Of a stretch of DNA of 53,122 bases, positions 585 through 53,122 are shown one piece after another; positions within the stretch are counted from its first letter, which is position 1, and each line of letters starts with the position of its first letter. A program made the position numbers and the translations under genes. Below the pieces are notes generated by a model. The model made no database searches and was not told the DNA's origin. It worked only from the letters and a program-made list of their open reading frames with translations. This DNA comes from a virus. Where the stretch lies: the IMG/VR virus record IMGVR_UViG_3300017971_000065, one strand, 5' to 3'.

Positions 585-728
585 ATGGCAGACAAGGTGA
601 TATTCAGGACAGGCGTTTATAGGTGTCCGAAGTGCAACCATGAATGGTTGTCACAAGAGAGGCCAGATAAATGTCCTAACTGTGGCTTCAAAGAGTCAGG
701 TGATAAACATGACAAGGCAAAAGTTTAG
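585..728 (+). CDS. Small zinc-ribbon protein (47 aa, below ORF-track cutoff)
   Basis: ATG 2 nt after the PCNA stop. MADKVIFRTGVYRCPKCNHEWLSQERPDKCPNCGF has two CPxC knuckles. Overlaps the next gene start by 20 nt. Confidence 0.45.
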   Translation: MADKVIFRTGVYRCPKCNHEWLSQERPDKCPNCGFKESGDKHDKAKV

Positions 729-1554
729 AGGGAACATCCTATACGAGCCATCTGGTCGGGCATTGGAAACGGCCAGGTTCGTATTCGGCGGTGTGAAACC
801 CATCATCGTGTGCAATCTGGCCAAGTCATGCTCTCATATGTGTTCATATTGTTACTGTCCAACCGTATTGAAAATGACGAAGGAACAGTTTCATAAGAAA
901 GTCGAACTCAAGAACAAGGTGCTTGAGAAGGTGGACAAGGACTTGGACAGGATAAAGTTGAGAGATGACTTCGACCCGAGATTCGTCTATCTGGGTTTCG
1001 TTGGCGATCCGTTCGTCAACGGAAGGCCAGACATTCAGGATATGACAACTCTTGTCATGGAGAGGTTGAGGCATGAGGGATACACGATATGCACTCTGAC
1101 CAAAGGCTCATACATGACGGACAAGATACACTATACACCAGTGATACCAGATTGGTACGGTATCTCACTAGTCAGTCTGGACGAAAAGTTCAGAAGGGAA
1201 CATGAACCGGGTGCGACAAAGTTCTCTGACAGGCTTGCAGGAGCTCAGGCAATGTCTGATGAAGGTGCAAGGCTCTGGGTTTCGATGGAACCTTATCCAA
1301 CACCCAATCTATCAGACCAGAACATCAACTACGTTCTCGAAATGATTGAAAGGGCGACCAATGGTGAGATTGAAAAGTTGATATTCGGCAGGTGGAACTA
1401 CGATACCAGAACAAGAGGGCAAGAGGCAGAGTTGTTCTATATAAAGACAGCAGAAACGGTTGTCGACTTCTGCAAGGAGAATGGTATCATAGTCAAGGTG
1501 AAAGACGACATCCTAAAGACAGTGGATGAAGGCGATCAACATAAACTTAGGTGA
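709..1554 (+). CDS. Radical SAM enzyme, SplB/COG1533-like (DNA repair photolyase-type family)
   Basis: CSHMCSYCYC is a CxxxCxxC radical SAM cluster motif in the C-H-x-C-x-YC(Y/F) form seen in SplB-like proteins. Start taken at internal ATG 709 (MTRQKF); track ORF starts at 640. Confidence 0.75.
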   Translation: MTRQKFRGNILYEPSGRALETARFVFGGVKPIIVCNLAKSCSHMCSYCYCPTVLKMTKEQFHKKVELKNKVLEKVDKDLDRIKLRDDFDPRFVYLGFVGDPFVNGRPDIQDMTTLVMERLRHEGYTICTLTKGSYMTDKIHYTPVIPDWYGISLVSLDEKFRREHEPGATKFSDRLAGAQAMSDEGARLWVSMEPYPTPNLSDQNINYVLEMIERATNGEIEKLIFGRWNYDTRTRGQEAELFYIKTAETVVDFCKENGIIVKVKDDILKTVDEGDQHKLR

Positions 1555-2982: not shown

Positions 2983-3687
2983 TTGCAGACAGTGATCGTG
3001 AACCCAGACAAGTTGAAACAACCAAGACGGCCTGGAAGCGGTAAGCGTAAGCAACCGTCAAGAAAGTCGGCAAAGCATGGATACAAGTACGAGTCCGAAA
3101 CATTGAAATCTCTGGAAAGACTTCAGTTGGACTATCCAGCGTTGTGGTACTATAAGATGGTAGATACTCACTCATACGACTGGATGAAATCAGTGTTGAG
3201 AGAACTTGAACAACTACTGGAACAGATGAATGACTTACCATACATAAGAAAACGGTTCCATGACAAACTGGCGAGGATTAAGGAGATACTCAACGTCCTT
3301 CAAAAGTTTGTCGTGCCAAAAGTTCCAGCAGACATATTCGTTCTTTACAACATGAGGGCTCTTGTCATAGAGTGCAAGAGTTCTCAACGAAAGGGAGGGT
3401 TCGTTCCCTTCGAACCGTATGTAAGTGAACATCAGATCGATGCCGGTCGTCAGATCGAGGGAGCTGGTGTTCCTTACTATTTTTTCATTTGTGATAGAGT
3501 ATATAAAGGAAAGAACAGGACGTTTATGATTAGATATCCAGACTTTATCAAGATGAGAAAATGGTGTGACCGTGAGAATAGGAGAACCATTCCATGGTCA
3601 CGCATGGAAAAATATGCAGAAGCGATTCTGCCAAAACAGAAAGGTCAAGTATTCGACTTACAGCCGATAATGAAACATCTGGAATGA
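2983..3687 (+). CDS. PD-(D/E)XK nuclease, Holliday-junction resolvase (Hjc)/VRR-NUC-like, with basic N-terminal tail
   Basis: HGYKYE...PADIFVL...LVIECKSS matches the E...D...ExK nuclease core. Start codon uncertain (TTG 2983 or GTG 2992). Confidence 0.55.
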   Translation: MQTVIVNPDKLKQPRRPGSGKRKQPSRKSAKHGYKYESETLKSLERLQLDYPALWYYKMVDTHSYDWMKSVLRELEQLLEQMNDLPYIRKRFHDKLARIKEILNVLQKFVVPKVPADIFVLYNMRALVIECKSSQRKGGFVPFEPYVSEHQIDAGRQIEGAGVPYYFFICDRVYKGKNRTFMIRYPDFIKMRKWCDRENRRTIPWSRMEKYAEAILPKQKGQVFDLQPIMKHLE

Positions 3688-38399: not shown

Positions 38400-38843
38400 A
38401 TGAAGTCGGAGAAGGATGAGTTCATAGACCACATGACCTACGTCTTTTCAGCACCCATCATCCAGCATCCTATGTGGCCAATCCCAGACAAGATAAAGGA
38501 TGAGGCGACATTATATCGACTGGCAGAAGTCCAGACTATCAAAAATAAGATGGCAACTGGGTGGGAAGTGATGGGGTATCTATCCACTCAATCACTAGTC
38601 GGCCCACTCGACCATCATTGGTATCAGATTTATATGTATTTGTTCAGAAAATATATGCCAGAACAGGCAAAGATGATTGACATCGAGGAAATAGAACTTG
38701 GAATAATGGAACAACAAATGTTGGAGAGAATTCAGCGGTGGATGTTCAAACAGCAGTGGGATCACATCAAGGTCAAGAGAAAAGAGTCGGAAGCGGAGAA
38801 ACAAAAGACTCTTGACATAGTATTCGAGGAAGTGAAAGCATGA
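38400..38843 (+). CDS. Hypothetical protein (147 aa)
   Basis: ATG 38400 lies 5 nt after the upstream stop. Confidence 0.55.
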   Translation: MKSEKDEFIDHMTYVFSAPIIQHPMWPIPDKIKDEATLYRLAEVQTIKNKMATGWEVMGYLSTQSLVGPLDHHWYQIYMYLFRKYMPEQAKMIDIEEIELGIMEQQMLERIQRWMFKQQWDHIKVKRKESEAEKQKTLDIVFEEVKA

Positions 38844-39469
38844 ATGAAACCAAAGAAGGATTGTCGACCATTATCGTGGTCGGACAGGCGAATGGAAAGT
38901 ATGTCAACGAGGCTGTGACAAAGGAATTCGAGGGCAAGGTATTGATAACGGCGAGGCCCGATGGTGCAGTCATCGTTCATAATCTTTCGGCAGGTGTACG
39001 ACCCATCTGTTACATAGATGGTGGGGCCGAAGTATCGATAGCGAGGAATGTCATAGACGCAGAGATTGAAGTGTTCTGCAAAACGGAAAGCGGTGAGAAC
39101 TTGACACTCTCATTCACTGAGGTCATGGCAATACAGGGAATTCCAGACAAGGAATGTGATAGTCTTGCTCTGGCAATCCTGAAGTGCGTGTTCGATATGG
39201 GTGGGAACTATGGAAGGACGACAATAGCAAGAGTATTGACCGGGTCAGTATCCAAGAAGGTGCTGACGATCAACGTATCGAAGTTGAGTCATTATGGTGT
39301 GGCCAAGAGTCACAACATGAAAGAAGTCCTGACATTGATTGACTGGCTCATCGAGGAGAACTACATTGCCTACGCAGAGGACACGGAATTTCCGGTTCTC
39401 GTCATCACATCGAAGGGACTCGATATACTGGCAGGTGGAGATGAGCTTCCAGTGGAAGTGAAGGCGTGA
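38840..39469 (+). CDS. NucS-N-terminal-like beta-barrel fused to an RQC-like winged helix
   Basis: GKVLITARPDGAVIVHN...P..Y resembles GDRVIIIKPDGSFLIHQ of the NucS N-domain. GRTTIARVLTGSVSKKVL...LSHYGVAK...LIDWLIEENYI resembles the RecQ RQC winged helix. Confidence 0.55.
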   Translation: MNETKEGLSTIIVVGQANGKYVNEAVTKEFEGKVLITARPDGAVIVHNLSAGVRPICYIDGGAEVSIARNVIDAEIEVFCKTESGENLTLSFTEVMAIQGIPDKECDSLALAILKCVFDMGGNYGRTTIARVLTGSVSKKVLTINVSKLSHYGVAKSHNMKEVLTLIDWLIEENYIAYAEDTEFPVLVITSKGLDILAGGDELPVEVKA

Positions 39470-45224: not shown

Positions 45225-45288
45225 ACCCAACATATCTTTATCATGTCTGGACGGTTAAAATCCGTCAGACTTGCAGGAGGTAAAACTC

Positions 45289-46152
45289 ATGGCAGTGAAA
45301 AAGACAAAAAAATTGGACGAGGACAGAGATGATGACGCTCTTGAACGATTAGGCAAGAGTGAGAAAGGAGGAAAGGATATAAGTGCCACCATGTCCAAAC
45401 TCGTCGATACTGCCGACAAGGTCGAATGGGAGGAATTGCCAGAACTGGACATTCCACCTATGGCCGTTGAGTTCATAGGAGAACAAGGTTCAGGAAAGAC
45501 ACATTGTGGTCTTTCATTCCCAGAGCCAGCTCTCTGCGACACAGAGGGTAAGGGTTGGGTTGTTCTCAAGAAGTTCGGAAATAATCGTTGGTTCAGGGCA
45601 AGAACCTTCGGAGATGTTCTGGACTTTGTCAATACGATACTCAATGACGATTCGATCAAGACGGCGGTATTCGACAGTTCAAGAGACATTGTGGACATGG
45701 CAGAGAGGTTCGTGCTGAAGGAACTTGGTAGAGACACGTTATTCTCGACCAAAGGCGCGGTATTGTACTCTCATGTCTATGGAAAGATTGACTGGATAAT
45801 CCAGACATTGAGGATGGCAGGAAAGAACGTGGTCTTTACATCCAGGCTCAAGGATGAGTACATAGATGACAGGAGAACTGGAAATCAGATCACAGACGGC
45901 TACAAGAAGGCAGGGTATCAGGTTGACCTTCAAATCCGTTTCACGACACGGATAAAGTGGAACGATGAAACCCATGTAGTCATCCAGCCAGTTGGTTATG
46001 TATTGAAGGATGGGTTCATCAGGCGTGGTGTCTATGCACCATACATCAAGGACGCAACCTTCGATGGTATCTGTGAGAACCTGCTCGAACCAATCGAAAG
46101 CACAGACAAGTACATGACCAAGTTCCTCAAGGACTTGGGGTTGACGGAATGA
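45289..46152 (+). CDS. RecA-superfamily ATPase, Sak4/AAA_24-like
   Basis: AGGAGGT SD before ATG 45289; FIGEQGSGKTH (Walker A) followed by PALCDTEGKG. Confidence 0.7.
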   Translation: MAVKKTKKLDEDRDDDALERLGKSEKGGKDISATMSKLVDTADKVEWEELPELDIPPMAVEFIGEQGSGKTHCGLSFPEPALCDTEGKGWVVLKKFGNNRWFRARTFGDVLDFVNTILNDDSIKTAVFDSSRDIVDMAERFVLKELGRDTLFSTKGAVLYSHVYGKIDWIIQTLRMAGKNVVFTSRLKDEYIDDRRTGNQITDGYKKAGYQVDLQIRFTTRIKWNDETHVVIQPVGYVLKDGFIRRGVYAPYIKDATFDGICENLLEPIESTDKYMTKFLKDLGLTE

Positions 46153-50104: not shown

Positions 50105-50309
50105 AAGCCGTGTATGGTATCAGAGATACAAATCACTTGCGGAACTGCTCAAGAAAGGAAACTGTGAGAACCCGGTTGAAGTCCTGAAGCAAGTGGACAA
50201 GACGATAAACGATGCCAGAGGATACGGATATGACCATGTTGCGTGTTCGGCCTGGGAATCGCTACAACAAGTCGTCGAGGACATGGGATGGGAATGGAAA
50301 GACAATTAG
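50049..50309 (+). CDS. Hypothetical protein (86 aa)
   Basis: GGTGATGATAATG start context. Confidence 0.45.
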   Translation: MHKKIPDEFKSKKELDKIRSRVWYQRYKSLAELLKKGNCENPVEVLKQVDKTINDARGYGYDHVACSAWESLQQVVEDMGWEWKDN

Positions 50310-50698
50310 AACCTGTCCCAAAAATCCTCTATCATTGCACCAGACTTGACAAGGTCGATACGATACTGAAGGAAGGTCTGAAGGTCAATACACCATTGAG
50401 TCCTGTCAACAAGAGAGTTTACAACAAGAAGGGCGTATATCTATCAACAGAGATGTTTGGATGGATGTATTGGGCAACTGACGATCACACACATAGAGGA
50501 GCTGTAATCACAATCAATGTTGAAGGTCTGGAACTCATTGAGGACAGTGACCTTCTGGTAATCAGCGAGGCAGACGGAGAGGTAAAGAACAGAAATCTCA
50601 TGGACTACATTTGTCCTAACGATATTGAACCAGAGAGAATAATTGCTGTGTCCAGAGAGCAGGATGACAATAGTTTCGTAGAGGAGAGGATAAGATGA
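50294..50698 (+). CDS. ADP-ribosyltransferase-fold protein resembling the NAD-binding C-lobe of RNA 2-prime-phosphotransferase Tpt1/KptA
   Basis: PKILYHCT..VDTILKEGL...GVYLS...HRGAVITINV parallels the E. coli KptA segment PQFLYHGT..LDEIKKQGL...YVHLS...HGSPVILTV. Confidence 0.5.
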   Translation: MERQLEPVPKILYHCTRLDKVDTILKEGLKVNTPLSPVNKRVYNKKGVYLSTEMFGWMYWATDDHTHRGAVITINVEGLELIEDSDLLVISEADGEVKNRNLMDYICPNDIEPERIIAVSREQDDNSFVEERIR

Positions 50699-50949: not shown

Positions 50950-51041
50950 TCCAGCAGGAGCGAAACGCTTATATAGGCACAAATCTATCACCATTCGGAC
51001 ATGAAGGGATATAAACCTACATGACCGTATAAGGTGATGTG

Positions 51042-52064
51042 ATGAAACAGAAATATGAGTCATACAATATGACACAGCGACTTCTCGACCAGATTAAAGT
51101 TATCAACGGTGTTGTTGAGTCCTATGCCAAACAGGGCTATAAATTGACATTGAGGCAACTGTATTACCAGTTGGTTTCCAGAGGAATAATCCCAAACAAA
51201 GACACCGAATACAAGAAACTATCAGATTTACTCGTAAAGGCGAGGATGTCTGGTCTTGTCGATTGGGACGCGATAGAGGACAGGACAAGGGTTCCGAAGC
51301 TCGATTACTCAGTTGACGACATTCCAGATGCCATTGACGATACCATCAGTCAGTACAAGTTAGAACGATTACAAGACCAGAAAGTGTATATCGAAGTCTG
51401 GTGCGAGAAGGACGCATTGAGCAACATCCTTCGGAGAATGACCAACAAATTCCATGTCAGGTTGATGATAAACAAAGGATACTCAAGTGCAAGTGCAATG
51501 TATCGTGCGGCCCAAAGGTTCAGGAGACACGGAACAGGAAAGAAAAAGATACTTCTGTATCTTGGTGACCATGACCCTTCGGGACTCGACATGATAAGGG
51601 ACATAGGCGATAGATTGAATACATTCGGCGTAAGACTGGACACACCAGACGGTTATCCGATTCACTTGGGTATTACAAGAGAACAGGTCGAGGAATACGA
51701 ACCGCCTGAAAATCCAGCAAAGATTACTGACCCACGAGCCGAGTGGTACATCGAAGAACATGGAGAAAGTTCATGGGAAGTCGATGCTCTCGAACCATCA
51801 GTCCTAAACGAGTTGATCGAGAACGAGATATTCGAGTGGATTGATGAGGACAGGTTCAGGAACAAAGTCAAGCAAGAGAACGTTGACAAGTTGAAACTTG
51901 AAAATCTCAAGGACTTGATCGATGACCTCGATGTAAATATCGAAGTGTCATGTGTGAACTGTTCTGAACAAGTCCAGGCCGATGACGATGATACTATATA
52001 CGACATGGATGATGACAAATGGTTCTGTGGTAATGAGTGTCACGATGAATACAATGCCGAGTAA
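51042..52064 (+). CDS. Topoisomerase VI subunit A / Spo11-like protein (mini-A type: 5Y-CAP plus Toprim) with C-terminal zinc finger
   Basis: TLRQLYYQL (catalytic-Tyr motif, compare RDIYY), VWCEKDAL (Toprim Glu), LGDHDPSGLDM (Toprim DxD). GGTGATGTGATG start context. Confidence 0.7.
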   Translation: MKQKYESYNMTQRLLDQIKVINGVVESYAKQGYKLTLRQLYYQLVSRGIIPNKDTEYKKLSDLLVKARMSGLVDWDAIEDRTRVPKLDYSVDDIPDAIDDTISQYKLERLQDQKVYIEVWCEKDALSNILRRMTNKFHVRLMINKGYSSASAMYRAAQRFRRHGTGKKKILLYLGDHDPSGLDMIRDIGDRLNTFGVRLDTPDGYPIHLGITREQVEEYEPPENPAKITDPRAEWYIEEHGESSWEVDALEPSVLNELIENEIFEWIDEDRFRNKVKQENVDKLKLENLKDLIDDLDVNIEVSCVNCSEQVQADDDDTIYDMDDDKWFCGNECHDEYNAE

Positions 52065-52084: not shown

Positions 52085-52235
52085 GGGTCTGTGGCTCAGT
52101 TAGGCAGAGCGTCGGGCTTTTAAGGTCATGTGGCGAGGTTCACTATCTCCGTTCCAAGCTGAATGATGAGAAACTGATTGACCCACATGATTTGGAGATA
52201 CCCGATGGTCGCAGGTTCAAATCCTGCCAGACTCG
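52085..52235 (+). tRNA. tRNA-Lys (anticodon UUU) with a 77-nt intron at position 37/38 (52123-52199)
   Basis: Hand fold: acceptor GGGTCTG/CAGACTC, D arm GCTC/GAGC, anticodon stem TCGGG/CCCGA, loop CTTTTAA, T arm GCAGG-TTCAAAT-CCTGC. No encoded CCA. Confidence 0.85.
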
Positions 52236-52260: not shown

Positions 52261-52397
52261 AGCGAGGTAGGGTAGTCTGGTAATCCCAATGGGCTCATGA
52301 GTCGGATGTGAAGTTTCTGCCCTGATCCTCCACTGATGACACCAGTCACCATGATTGAGAAACCCATTAATCTGTGGTTCGAATCCACACCTCGCTA
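52261..52397 (+). tRNA. Initiator-like tRNA-Met (anticodon CAU) with a 62-nt intron (52300-52361) in a canonical bulge-helix-bulge context
   Basis: A1:U72. Anticodon stem ATGGG/CCCAT gives three G:C pairs at 29-31:39-41. T arm TGTGG-TTCGAAT-CCACA. Central 4-bp helix CTCA/TGAG flanked by 3-nt bulges TGA and AAA. Confidence 0.8.
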
Positions 52398-52399
52398 TC

Positions 52400-52557
52400 G
52401 GGTAACACCGACACATGGCAGGTAGCATGAAGTCCGGTCTATCTGAAGTCGCCGAATGCGTGTACTGGTGGCTATCGGGCGTGATGCCACATCTTCTTTG
52501 CTGGCTGGCATTAGAAACTCCAACAGAGCACGATACTACGGTTTGTCGGTGTTATCC
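52400..52557 (+). ncRNA. Unclassified structured element: 14-bp long-range helix enclosing 130 nt
   Basis: GGGTAACACCGACA (52400-13) pairs with TGTCGGTGTTATCC (52544-57), one G:U. An inner hairpin GTGGC/GCCAC lies at 52468-52490. Confidence 0.35.
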
Positions 52558-52561
52558 ATAT

Positions 52562-52666
52562 CCGTCGATGATGAGTGCGACCAGAGTTGATCCATCAGAT
52601 GCTTGAGAAAAGGGACTGCTGCACTGCCCTGTTGGGAGATGACATAGTTCCTCTAAACTGAGACGG
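52562..52666 (+). ncRNA. Box C/D sRNA candidate
   Basis: Terminal stem CCGTC/GACGG, C box ATGATGA (52568-74), 12-nt spacer, TTGA (52587-90), AGATGA (52637-42), D box CTGA (52658-61) abutting the stem. Confidence 0.4.
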
Positions 52667-52694
52667 ATAATCATTCGCATATGGATGTGATGTG

Positions 52695-53122
52695 ATGGCT
52701 GTAAAGAAAAAGCAAGATAAACTGGCCAAAGAGCCAGCAAGTGCCAATTTCAAGGCAAGGATTGAGTGCAGTCTGCTTCGTGGAATTGCGTCAAGTATTT
52801 CCATGTTGACAGATGAGGCGAAGTTCAAGATTGGCAAGAAAAAGTGGGTTATACAGGTCGTTGATCCAGCACACATTGCCATGCTTGAATTGGAGATTGA
52901 TGTCAGCAACTTCGAGGATTATATCTGCAAGAAAGAAGGTGTCGTAGGAGTTGACATAGACAAATTGCATGACGCAATCAAGTACGTCAAGGACAGGGAC
53001 ATTGTCAGGATTGAAACCGACATTCTGAAAGTGACAAGAGAGAAAGAAGGTAAGGACGTTGTCGTGAACATCGACAGGATAAAGATTGACGATGGCCTAT
53101 GTTCAAGACGTTTCAACCAACC
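52695..53122 (+). CDS. pcn: PCNA sliding clamp (paralogue 1), N-terminal part; runs off the window end and continues at position 1/124
   Basis: GGATGTGATGTGATG start context. MAVKKKQDKL...FKARIECSLLRGIASSISMLTDEAKFKIGKKKWVIQVVDPAHIAMLELEID is PCNA N-domain-like. Not in the ORF track because no stop lies within the window. Confidence 0.85.
   Translation, partial: MAVKKKQDKLAKEPASANFKARIECSLLRGIASSISMLTDEAKFKIGKKKWVIQVVDPAHIAMLELEIDVSNFEDYICKKEGVVGVDIDKLHDAIKYVKDRDIVRIETDILKVTREKEGKDVVVNIDRIKIDDGLCSRRFNQ
53000..53122. repeat. Terminal direct repeat, copy 2 (identical to 1-123)
   Basis: Same 123-nt string as 1-123; the repeat extends to the window edge. Confidence 0.95.

Follow-up and report, generated by a model that had tools for sequence, protein, structure and literature searches.

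The question raised by this locus is what a virus might do with a relative of the A subunit of topoisomerase VI (Topo VI) when no ATPase (B) subunit is encoded beside it. The DNA analyzed, here called the window, is the whole stretch of 53,122 nucleotides of IMG/VR record IMGVR_UViG_3300017971_000065, and the gene in question is the open reading frame (ORF) at 51042-52064 on the plus strand. The original prediction, made from the letters alone, read its product as a stand-alone Topo VI-A/Spo11-like mini-A protein, and the family profile, the published signatures, and a predicted fold whose first structural matches are Top6A all agree with that reading. The protein is a bona fide Mini-A; among type IIB topoisomerase A subunits, Mini-A is the third subfamily and is carried by viruses. 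This family is already published, very large, and known from cultured phages; the finding, though correct, is not new. The best overall explanation of its function, which we consider probable if only modestly so, is that Mini-A acts as an ATP-independent homodimer that breaks and rejoins DNA via Tyr42 and Mg2+ in viral replication or recombination.

Translation of the ORF bears out the 340-aa product that had been claimed. An alternative GTG start was listed one codon upstream, at 51039; the ATG start was preferred because it agrees with the JGI gene call and with the homologues. The protein matched PHROG family phrog_6247 ("DNA topoisomerase") with an E value of 1.4e-86 over residues 1-295, and no match was obtained in NCBIfam. 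By tblastn, 84 GenBank phage records matched the protein at 37-47% identity (E 1e-49 to 1e-86), with hosts among Flavobacterium, Listeria, Pseudomonas, Xylella, Salmonella, and Roseobacter. Several of these records carry the annotation "DNA topoisomerase," and they include the Listeria, Pseudomonas, and Salmonella phages used to define Mini-A (PMC7671362). As defined by Takahashi et al. in 2020, the subfamily is viral, ~300 aa long, and without the N-terminal, Top6B-binding part of the 5Y-CAP domain; its signatures are RxxY/FY, E, DxDxxG, and an xWELDAL "T2BI box" peculiar to the subfamily, by which Mini-A can be told apart from Topo VI and Topo VIII (PMC7671362). All of these published features, namely, the motifs, the ~300-aa core (295 aa in this case), the viral setting, and the family similarity, were found for the window protein. 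Homologues were abundant, with at least 7,994 clusters at E<=1e-5 in a collection of 5.8 billion proteins; most clusters are ~290 aa, and those among the matches listed have no Pfam domain. Pattern scans located Mini-A in at least 585 viral contigs and at 210 places in bacterial and archaeal species genomes; proviruses of both bacteria and archaea are among its carriers.

The original prediction named three sequence features, and each was recovered in the translation: the catalytic-tyrosine motif as L37-R38-Q-L-Y41-Y42-Q-L, the two Toprim signatures as C121-E122-K-D-A-L and G175-D176-H-D178-P-S-G181, and the terminal CxxC...CxxxC zinc finger as C304-x2-C307 ... F328-C329-x3-C333. These motifs are not chance matches: in an alignment of 120 sequences, E122, D176, D178, G181, W245, E246, and D248 were invariant, and R38, Y41, and Y42 were kept in at least 90% of the sequences; in a 22-sequence alignment, all of these residues were invariant. 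Every one of the 74 sampled viral Mini-A ORFs has R..[YFM]Y, D.D..G, and WE.D[AS]. The T2BI box of the window protein reads S-W245-E-V-D-A-L, and its conservative L-to-V change is common to the whole local clade. The 5Y-CAP tyrosine stands at residue 42, compared with residue 106 in M. mazei Top6A, the N terminus being truncated. The conservation of the catalytic Tyr/Arg and of the three acidic residues across divergent homologues is what selection on catalysis predicts, and it argues against a noncatalytic role, such as that of a DNA-binding protein or of a decoy that would block host Topo VI or a Wadjet-type defense by mimicry of the A subunit or of JetD. The case for such a decoy is limited to homology with subunits of host complexes and to a patchy distribution like that of an accessory gene, and we find the proposal hardly credible.

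The AlphaFold2 (AF2) model of Mini-A (pLDDT 86.9, pTM 0.76) was compared with the PDB by Foldseek. The first three ranks were Top6A chains, from M. mazei (9o8p_A), M. jannaschii (1d3y_B), and again M. mazei (9o7o_A), with E values of 4.5e-4 to 9.7e-4, probabilities of 0.99-1.00, and 317-328 aligned columns. The MksG nuclease (8b7f) followed at rank 4 (E 1e-3), below which the E values were 0.05 or worse and corresponded to partial Toprim matches such as T7 primase (~88 columns). In a Foldseek search against BFVD, the same model had no useful match over its full length. Nothing relevant was returned when PDB sequences were searched by HMM and profile with the protein and its alignment, and no direct sequence match to Spo11 was seen in the PDB sequence HMM search. 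The Top6A/Spo11 comparison profile consisted of four sequences taken from PDB-search alignments; against it, hhalign gave a marginal local match confined to the DxD region (E=0.023, with shallow profiles). Under permissive settings, the hhalign alignment was collinear, pairing LTLRQLYY with STLRELYY, E122 with the glutamate of "IAIE," and DHDPSG with DGDPWS, at an E value of 0.07, which is not significant. Taken with the Top6A-like fold, the conservation of Arg38, Tyr41, and Tyr42 and of Glu122, Asp176, and Asp178 points to Top6A/Spo11 chemistry.

The high rank of MksG bears on a different reading, in which Mini-A would be a hydrolytic Toprim nuclease like MksG/JetD that forms no covalent intermediate and does not religate, for example, in degrading host or competitor DNA, while its tyrosines would only bind DNA. 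MksG is itself a dimeric, ATP-independent nuclease homologous to Topo VI-A (PMC10123090), and DUF2399 was the best Toprim-family match of Mini-A in Pfam, though sub-threshold (E=0.14). MksG, however, has no tyrosine at the 5Y-CAP position (PMC10123090), whereas R-x-x-Y-Y is present in at least 90% of the 120 homologues and R..[YFM]Y in 74 of 74 viral ORFs. Furthermore, the PADLOC defense-system models gave no match to Mini-A even at E<=10, and SMC-like JetABC genes were not observed among the Pfam-scanned ORFs of the window. A purely hydrolytic enzyme is therefore considered quite unlikely. The protein was placed in no unrelated Toprim family, such as JetD or DnaG-like proteins, which was an outcome that the original prediction had named as telling against it.

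The claim that no GHKL ATPase is encoded anywhere in the genome also stood, as none was detected by Pfam, by motif scan, or by the fold of the large unannotated replication protein. The Pfam scan comprised 40 window ORFs, that is, all those of at least 250 aa and most of those of at least 140 aa that were judged coding, and in it neither HATPase nor any Topo VI-B family was matched at E<=0.01. The Bergerat N-box/G1/G2 motif series occurred in no stop-to-stop window ORF of at least 120 aa. The unannotated 386-aa protein was considered as a cryptic "Mini-B" and was ruled out, its predicted fold being that of an MCM-like AAA+ protein. Takahashi et al. likewise found no "Mini-B" (PMC7671362).

The neighborhoods of other Mini-A genes were consistent with this result. 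By BLAST, 2,284 ORFs from ~82 sources (other loci and the window) were clustered, ~74 of the loci having a full Mini-A ORF, and no neighboring protein family was present in more than 6 of these ~74 loci, that is, no conserved partner was seen. Among the 150 nearest large neighbors scanned with Pfam, SF2 helicases were found in 8 and PolA, RecA, Mu Gam, Rad52, and SNF2 in 2 each; GHKL was not among the 25 most frequent families. Jackhmmer searches with the Sak4-like, Holliday-junction resolvase, DUF932, MCM-like, and RQC proteins of the window revealed no recurrence of these beside other Mini-A genes. Since no neighbor is conserved across the loci, Mini-A is deduced to behave as a stand-alone, freely exchanged gene.

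These data also bear on whether Mini-A could belong, as the A subunit, to a complete type IIB topoisomerase, with an ATPase provided in trans by either host Top6B or a divergent viral "Mini-B." The option was left open by Takahashi et al. (PMC7671362), B subunits of the TOPOVIBL type are too divergent for sequence searches, and many window ORFs have no annotation. Nevertheless, Mini-A does not have the N-terminal 5Y-CAP segment that binds Top6B, no neighbor is conserved across the ~74 loci, the window ORFs of at least 120 aa show no Bergerat motif series, and the one large unannotated replication protein is MCM-like. In addition, Mini-A is abundant in phages of bacteria, most of which are not known to have Topo VI. 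A partner acting in trans is accordingly rated very unlikely.

We infer the dimerization, covalent catalysis, ATP independence, and biological role of Mini-A as follows. The protein would form a homodimer with two composite active sites. Tyr42 of one subunit, placed by Arg38 and Tyr41, would attack a DNA phosphodiester beside an Mg2+ ion held by Glu122, Asp176, and Asp178 of the Toprim domain of the other subunit, and the product would be a 5'-phosphotyrosyl DNA break able to be resealed. As there is no GHKL ATPase, ATP-gated strand passage by Mini-A is not expected. The breakage and rejoining would instead be ATP independent and would consist of either nicking-closing or Spo11-like double-strand breaks. 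That proteins of the Top6A-like type can act without a partner is supported by mouse SPO11, which alone makes covalent double-strand breaks in vitro (PMC11922746), and by dimeric MksG, which cleaves DNA without ATP (PMC10123090).

The substrate of Mini-A would be the viral genome during replication or recombination, as suggested by the replication and recombination context of the gene in the window and in Pseudomonas phage JG054. In the window, Mini-A is found in the context of a replication module, on the same strand as the Sak4-like, MCM-like, PCNA, and Holliday-junction resolvase genes. In JG054, it lies between a ligase gene and genes for a RecA-like ATPase, a RecB-like exonuclease, and a helicase. 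The proteins presumed to share its role would be the MCM-like helicase, the two PCNAs, the Sak4-like protein, the Holliday-junction resolvase, and a ligase domain.

Several observations weigh against this explanation. Archaeal Top6A requires Top6B and ATP to cleave DNA, and activity of an isolated A-like protein is therefore not guaranteed. The original prediction had stated that the activity of mini-A proteins is unknown; this holds in the literature searched, in which no biochemically characterized Mini-A was found. The shallow profiles that were built gave no significant sequence similarity to Top6A/Spo11, and the Foldseek TM-scores against Top6A were low (~0.3), which was attributed to the two domains being oriented differently toward each other in the monomer model than in the solved structures. 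Finally, Mini-A neighborhoods are too variable to pin down a pathway, and in Xylella phage Salvo, the gene adjoins the lysis cassette.

Another reading is that Mini-A is a replication initiator that would nick one strand at a specific origin, stay on the 5' end via Tyr42, and prime rolling-circle (sigma) replication of the circularized genome in the manner of HUH endonucleases. Such a role has been proposed in a preprint for the skuldviruses of Asgard archaea and was repeated in 2026. The window assembles into a circular genome bearing a 123-bp terminal repeat, and no initiator, primase, or DNA polymerase was recognized in it by Pfam or PHROG. An MCM-like helicase and two PCNAs are encoded by the virus itself, though, so that Mini-A is not its sole replication protein, and Mini-A is common in phages with complete primase/helicase or PolA modules. 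The replication modules of the viral contigs with Mini-A (at least 585) are very different from one another, while a universal initiator would be expected to have an origin or partner conserved next to it, which was not seen. An initiator function is thus unlikely, and each of the rivals considered is less well supported than the model of breakage and rejoining.

The part of the protein that differs from the published family is its tail of 45 aa. Its four cysteines and a phenylalanine are kept in the six closest homologues (P0002-P0007; 67-78% identity), and its model contains four short strands, forming a beta-rich module, followed by a helix (pLDDT 85-89 in AF2). The Pfam family zf-FLZ matched the tail below the cut-off (E=0.14), while one of the six homologues, P0005, has a precomputed match to PF06467 (zf-FCS). 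No informative match was obtained with the tail alone against PDB sequences. Among the 74 sampled viral Mini-A ORFs, the tail was present in 2, those of the window and of a relative (contig L001), and was missing from the other 72. Zinc is not mentioned in the founding Mini-A paper (PMC7671362). Judged from sequence, the predicted zinc-finger tail is a new detail that is limited to a small clade of Mini-A, and the FCS-like finger is probably an added module that brings the enzyme to nucleic acid or a protein partner.

The surroundings of the gene were compared within this clade. On contig L167, whose Mini-A is 78% identical, the gene is followed by tRNA-Met and then by a PCNA gene whose product is 45% identical to the window PCNA. 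On L001 (Mini-A ~75% identical), tRNA-Met, small ORFs, and a radical-SAM gene come after Mini-A, and a PCNA gene is absent. The order Mini-A, tRNA, PCNA is thus kept in two of three related viruses (the window and L167). A motif scan for a PIP-box-like (PCNA-interacting) motif in Mini-A was negative. One might speculate that the zinc tail couples the Mini-A of this clade to an archaeal-type replisome with the MCM-like helicase and two PCNAs, where it would serve either as a replisome-associated, ATP-independent swivel or as a Spo11-like programmed breaker whose breaks pass to the Sak4-like protein, the Holliday-junction resolvase, and the ligase for recombination-dependent replication. We regard this as a long shot. 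If the programmed-breaker version were true, it would represent a viral analogue of meiotic break-induced recombination.

The window corresponds to viral contig JGI 3300017963 Ga0180437_10000890, and the same virus was found on 11 contigs (JGI, ENA, and Logan). An exact direct repeat of 123 bp occupies positions 1-123 and 53000-53122, and the genome is therefore deduced to be complete, as a 52,999-bp circle or in terminally redundant form. The virus is tailed, as a large terminase subunit and a capsid protein are encoded in the window. The coordinates of Mini-A, its parts, and the other genes discussed are collected in Table 1.

Table 1. Coordinates of the Mini-A gene, its domains and motifs, and other features of the window
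Feature	Position	Strand	Evidence and remarks
Mini-A gene, 340 aa plus stop	51042..52064	+	Translation, phrog_6247 match, homologues, Foldseek
5Y-CAP (winged-helix) domain, ~aa 10-100	51069..51341	+	AF2 helices 12-30, 37-46, 54-69, then short strands
R38-Q-L-Y41-Y42	51153..51167	+	Y42 predicted catalytic tyrosine, R38 conserved DNA-contacting arginine; alignments and RxxY/FY rule
Toprim domain, ~aa 112-250	51375..51791	+	AF2 strand/helix alternation over 115-245; Foldseek Toprim matches
E122, predicted Toprim metal-binding glutamate	51405..51407	+	Invariant; pairs with glutamate of Top6A "IAIE"
D176-H-D178-P-S-G181, predicted DxDxxG metal-binding motif	51567..51584	+	Invariant; pairs with Top6A "DGDPWS" (hhalign)
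W245-E-V-D-A-L, Mini-A-specific T2BI box	51774..51791	+	Fits published xWELDAL
C-terminal helical region, aa 252-295, family-wide	51795..51926	+	AF2 helices 252-266, 269-295; within phrog_6247 profile
Clade-specific predicted zinc-finger tail, aa 300-340, FCS/FLZ-like	51939..52061	+	C304-x2-C307 ... F328-C329-x3-C333
tRNA-Lys(UUU)	52085..52235	+	~77-78-nt anticodon-loop insertion after position 37; Rfam RF00005, 55.2 bits
tRNA(CAU)	52261..52397	+	~62-nt intron; Rfam, 48 bits
PCNA gene, 295 aa	52695..53122, across terminal repeat to 583	+	Junction translation; PCNA_C Pfam on 32-583; JGI PCNA_N + PCNA_C
Second PCNA, 264 aa	3828-4622	+	NCBIfam archaeal sliding-clamp, E 6e-18
Holliday-junction resolvase	2983-3687	+	phrog_843
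Sak4-like ssDNA-annealing protein	45271-46152	+	phrog_124 / AAA_24
MCM-like AAA+ protein, 386 aa	47080-48240	+	No Pfam/PHROG/NCBIfam match; 38 homologues in collection
RQC plus NucS-N-like DNA-binding protein	38840-39469	+	
Zinc ribbon + Dam-type N6-adenine methyltransferase + ATP-dependent DNA-ligase-like fusion, 994 aa	24213-27197	-	Among structural genes; unusual fusion

The original prediction had put the gene directly upstream of an RNA island and the PCNA gene, and this arrangement was seen as two tRNA genes followed by the PCNA gene. Both tRNA genes were missed by ARAGORN, and both have an insertion at or near position 37/38; these anticodon-loop insertions look like archaeal-type introns. 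In L001 and L167, an intron-less tRNA-Met(CAU) directly follows Mini-A, in the place of the window tRNAs. The 297-nt spacer between the second tRNA and PCNA (52398-52694, plus strand) has no ORF and no Rfam match, and its predicted folding is only modestly stronger than that of shuffled sequence (z = -1.86). The two PCNA homologues of the window are divergent from each other. A radical-SAM gene stands downstream of Mini-A both in the window (640-1554, plus strand), where it comes after the tRNAs and PCNA, and in L001 (4337-5176); the encoded radical-SAM protein, of uncertain subfamily, weakly resembles viperin and the PA0069 and Rv2578c families. Two genes upstream of Mini-A, a 151-aa ORF (50243-50698, plus strand) gave a sub-threshold match to the PARP catalytic domain PF00644 (E 8e-5).

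The 386-aa protein yielded an AF2 model with a pLDDT of 89.1, for which all 50 of the top 50 PDB matches were MCM2-7 or archaeal MCM (best E 3.5e-13). Going by this model, the protein is a "mini-MCM" helicase that is highly divergent, is truncated at the N terminus, and has a winged helix at the C terminus. At least nine zinc-ribbon ORFs were counted in the window virus. Because of its two PCNAs, MCM-like helicase, intron-containing tRNAs, and zinc-ribbon ORFs, the virus looks archaeal. The nearest genomic relatives of its Mini-A were from Woesearchaeota (59%), Paceibacterota (56%), and Cellulophaga (55%). The closest set in GTDB (L087-L166) comprised DPANN archaea, including Nanoarchaeota, together with CPR bacteria, Bacteroidota, and Nitrosopumilaceae. 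Such mixed relatives suggest either frequent transfer between viruses of bacteria and of archaea or mis-binned viral contigs. Assignment of a host from these relatives was rejected, as they are a mixture of archaea and bacteria and mostly contigs of metagenome-assembled genomes. The window terminase is only 29% identical to those of Streptomyces and Bacillus phages and is uninformative on the host.

The type IIB topoisomerase/Spo11 superfamily has three branches. Mini-A alone among them has no ATPase, and it may resemble an ancestral stand-alone A protein (PMC7671362). Knowledge of its function would bear on ATPase-free DNA cleavage by Spo11-type enzymes and on the ways in which viruses handle DNA topology or start replication. 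The locus is no easier a test of that function than the cultured Pseudomonas, Listeria, and Flavobacterium phages that carry Mini-A, among them Pseudomonas phages JG054 and NP1, Listeria phage LWP01, and the Flavobacterium FPSV phages. What it adds is the context of a complete genome of an apparently archaeal virus, with an MCM-like helicase, two PCNAs, and recombination genes; a previously unremarked variant with a predicted zinc-finger tail; and evidence from ~74 loci that no partner gene is conserved beside Mini-A.

Compared with known systems, the window protein is closest to the Mini-A family (phrog_6247), with which it shares the ~295-aa core, RxxYY, E, DxDxxG, WE(L/V)DAL, and the lack of a nearby B subunit. 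It differs in the extra 45-aa CxxC...FCxxxC tail, and its virus differs in having archaeal hallmarks (PCNAs, MCM-like helicase, and intron-containing tRNAs). In structure, Top6A (1d3y, 2q2e/9o8p, and 2zbk) matches best, across nearly the whole protein, and the Arg/Tyr, Glu, and DxD elements occur in the same order. In contrast to Top6A, Mini-A is without ~60 N-terminal residues, including the Top6B-binding segment, has no Top6B gene, has a different T2BI box, and is viral rather than chromosomal, and the sequence similarity between the two is below significance.

Like Spo11/SPO11, Mini-A would be a Top6A-like protein that serves as a DNA breaker and not as a strand-passage enzyme. Spo11, however, is eukaryotic, is regulated by TOP6BL along with numerous accessory factors, and lacks a zinc-finger tail. 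MksG/JetD of Wadjet (8b7f) likewise has a Top6A-like fold without an ATPase domain, and MksG is dimeric and uses divalent cations; MksG is without the 5Y-CAP catalytic tyrosine and partners with an SMC-like complex, whereas Mini-A keeps the tyrosine and has no such operon. Topo VIII is also of type IIB, restricted to mobile genetic elements, and without the N-terminal 5Y-CAP segment, yet it is a fused B and A protein with a Bergerat ATPase and an RVELNAM box and is found on plasmids (PMC7671362). The window protein, with 340 aa, no ATPase region, and WEVDAL in place of RVELNAM, is thus distinguished from Topo VIII.

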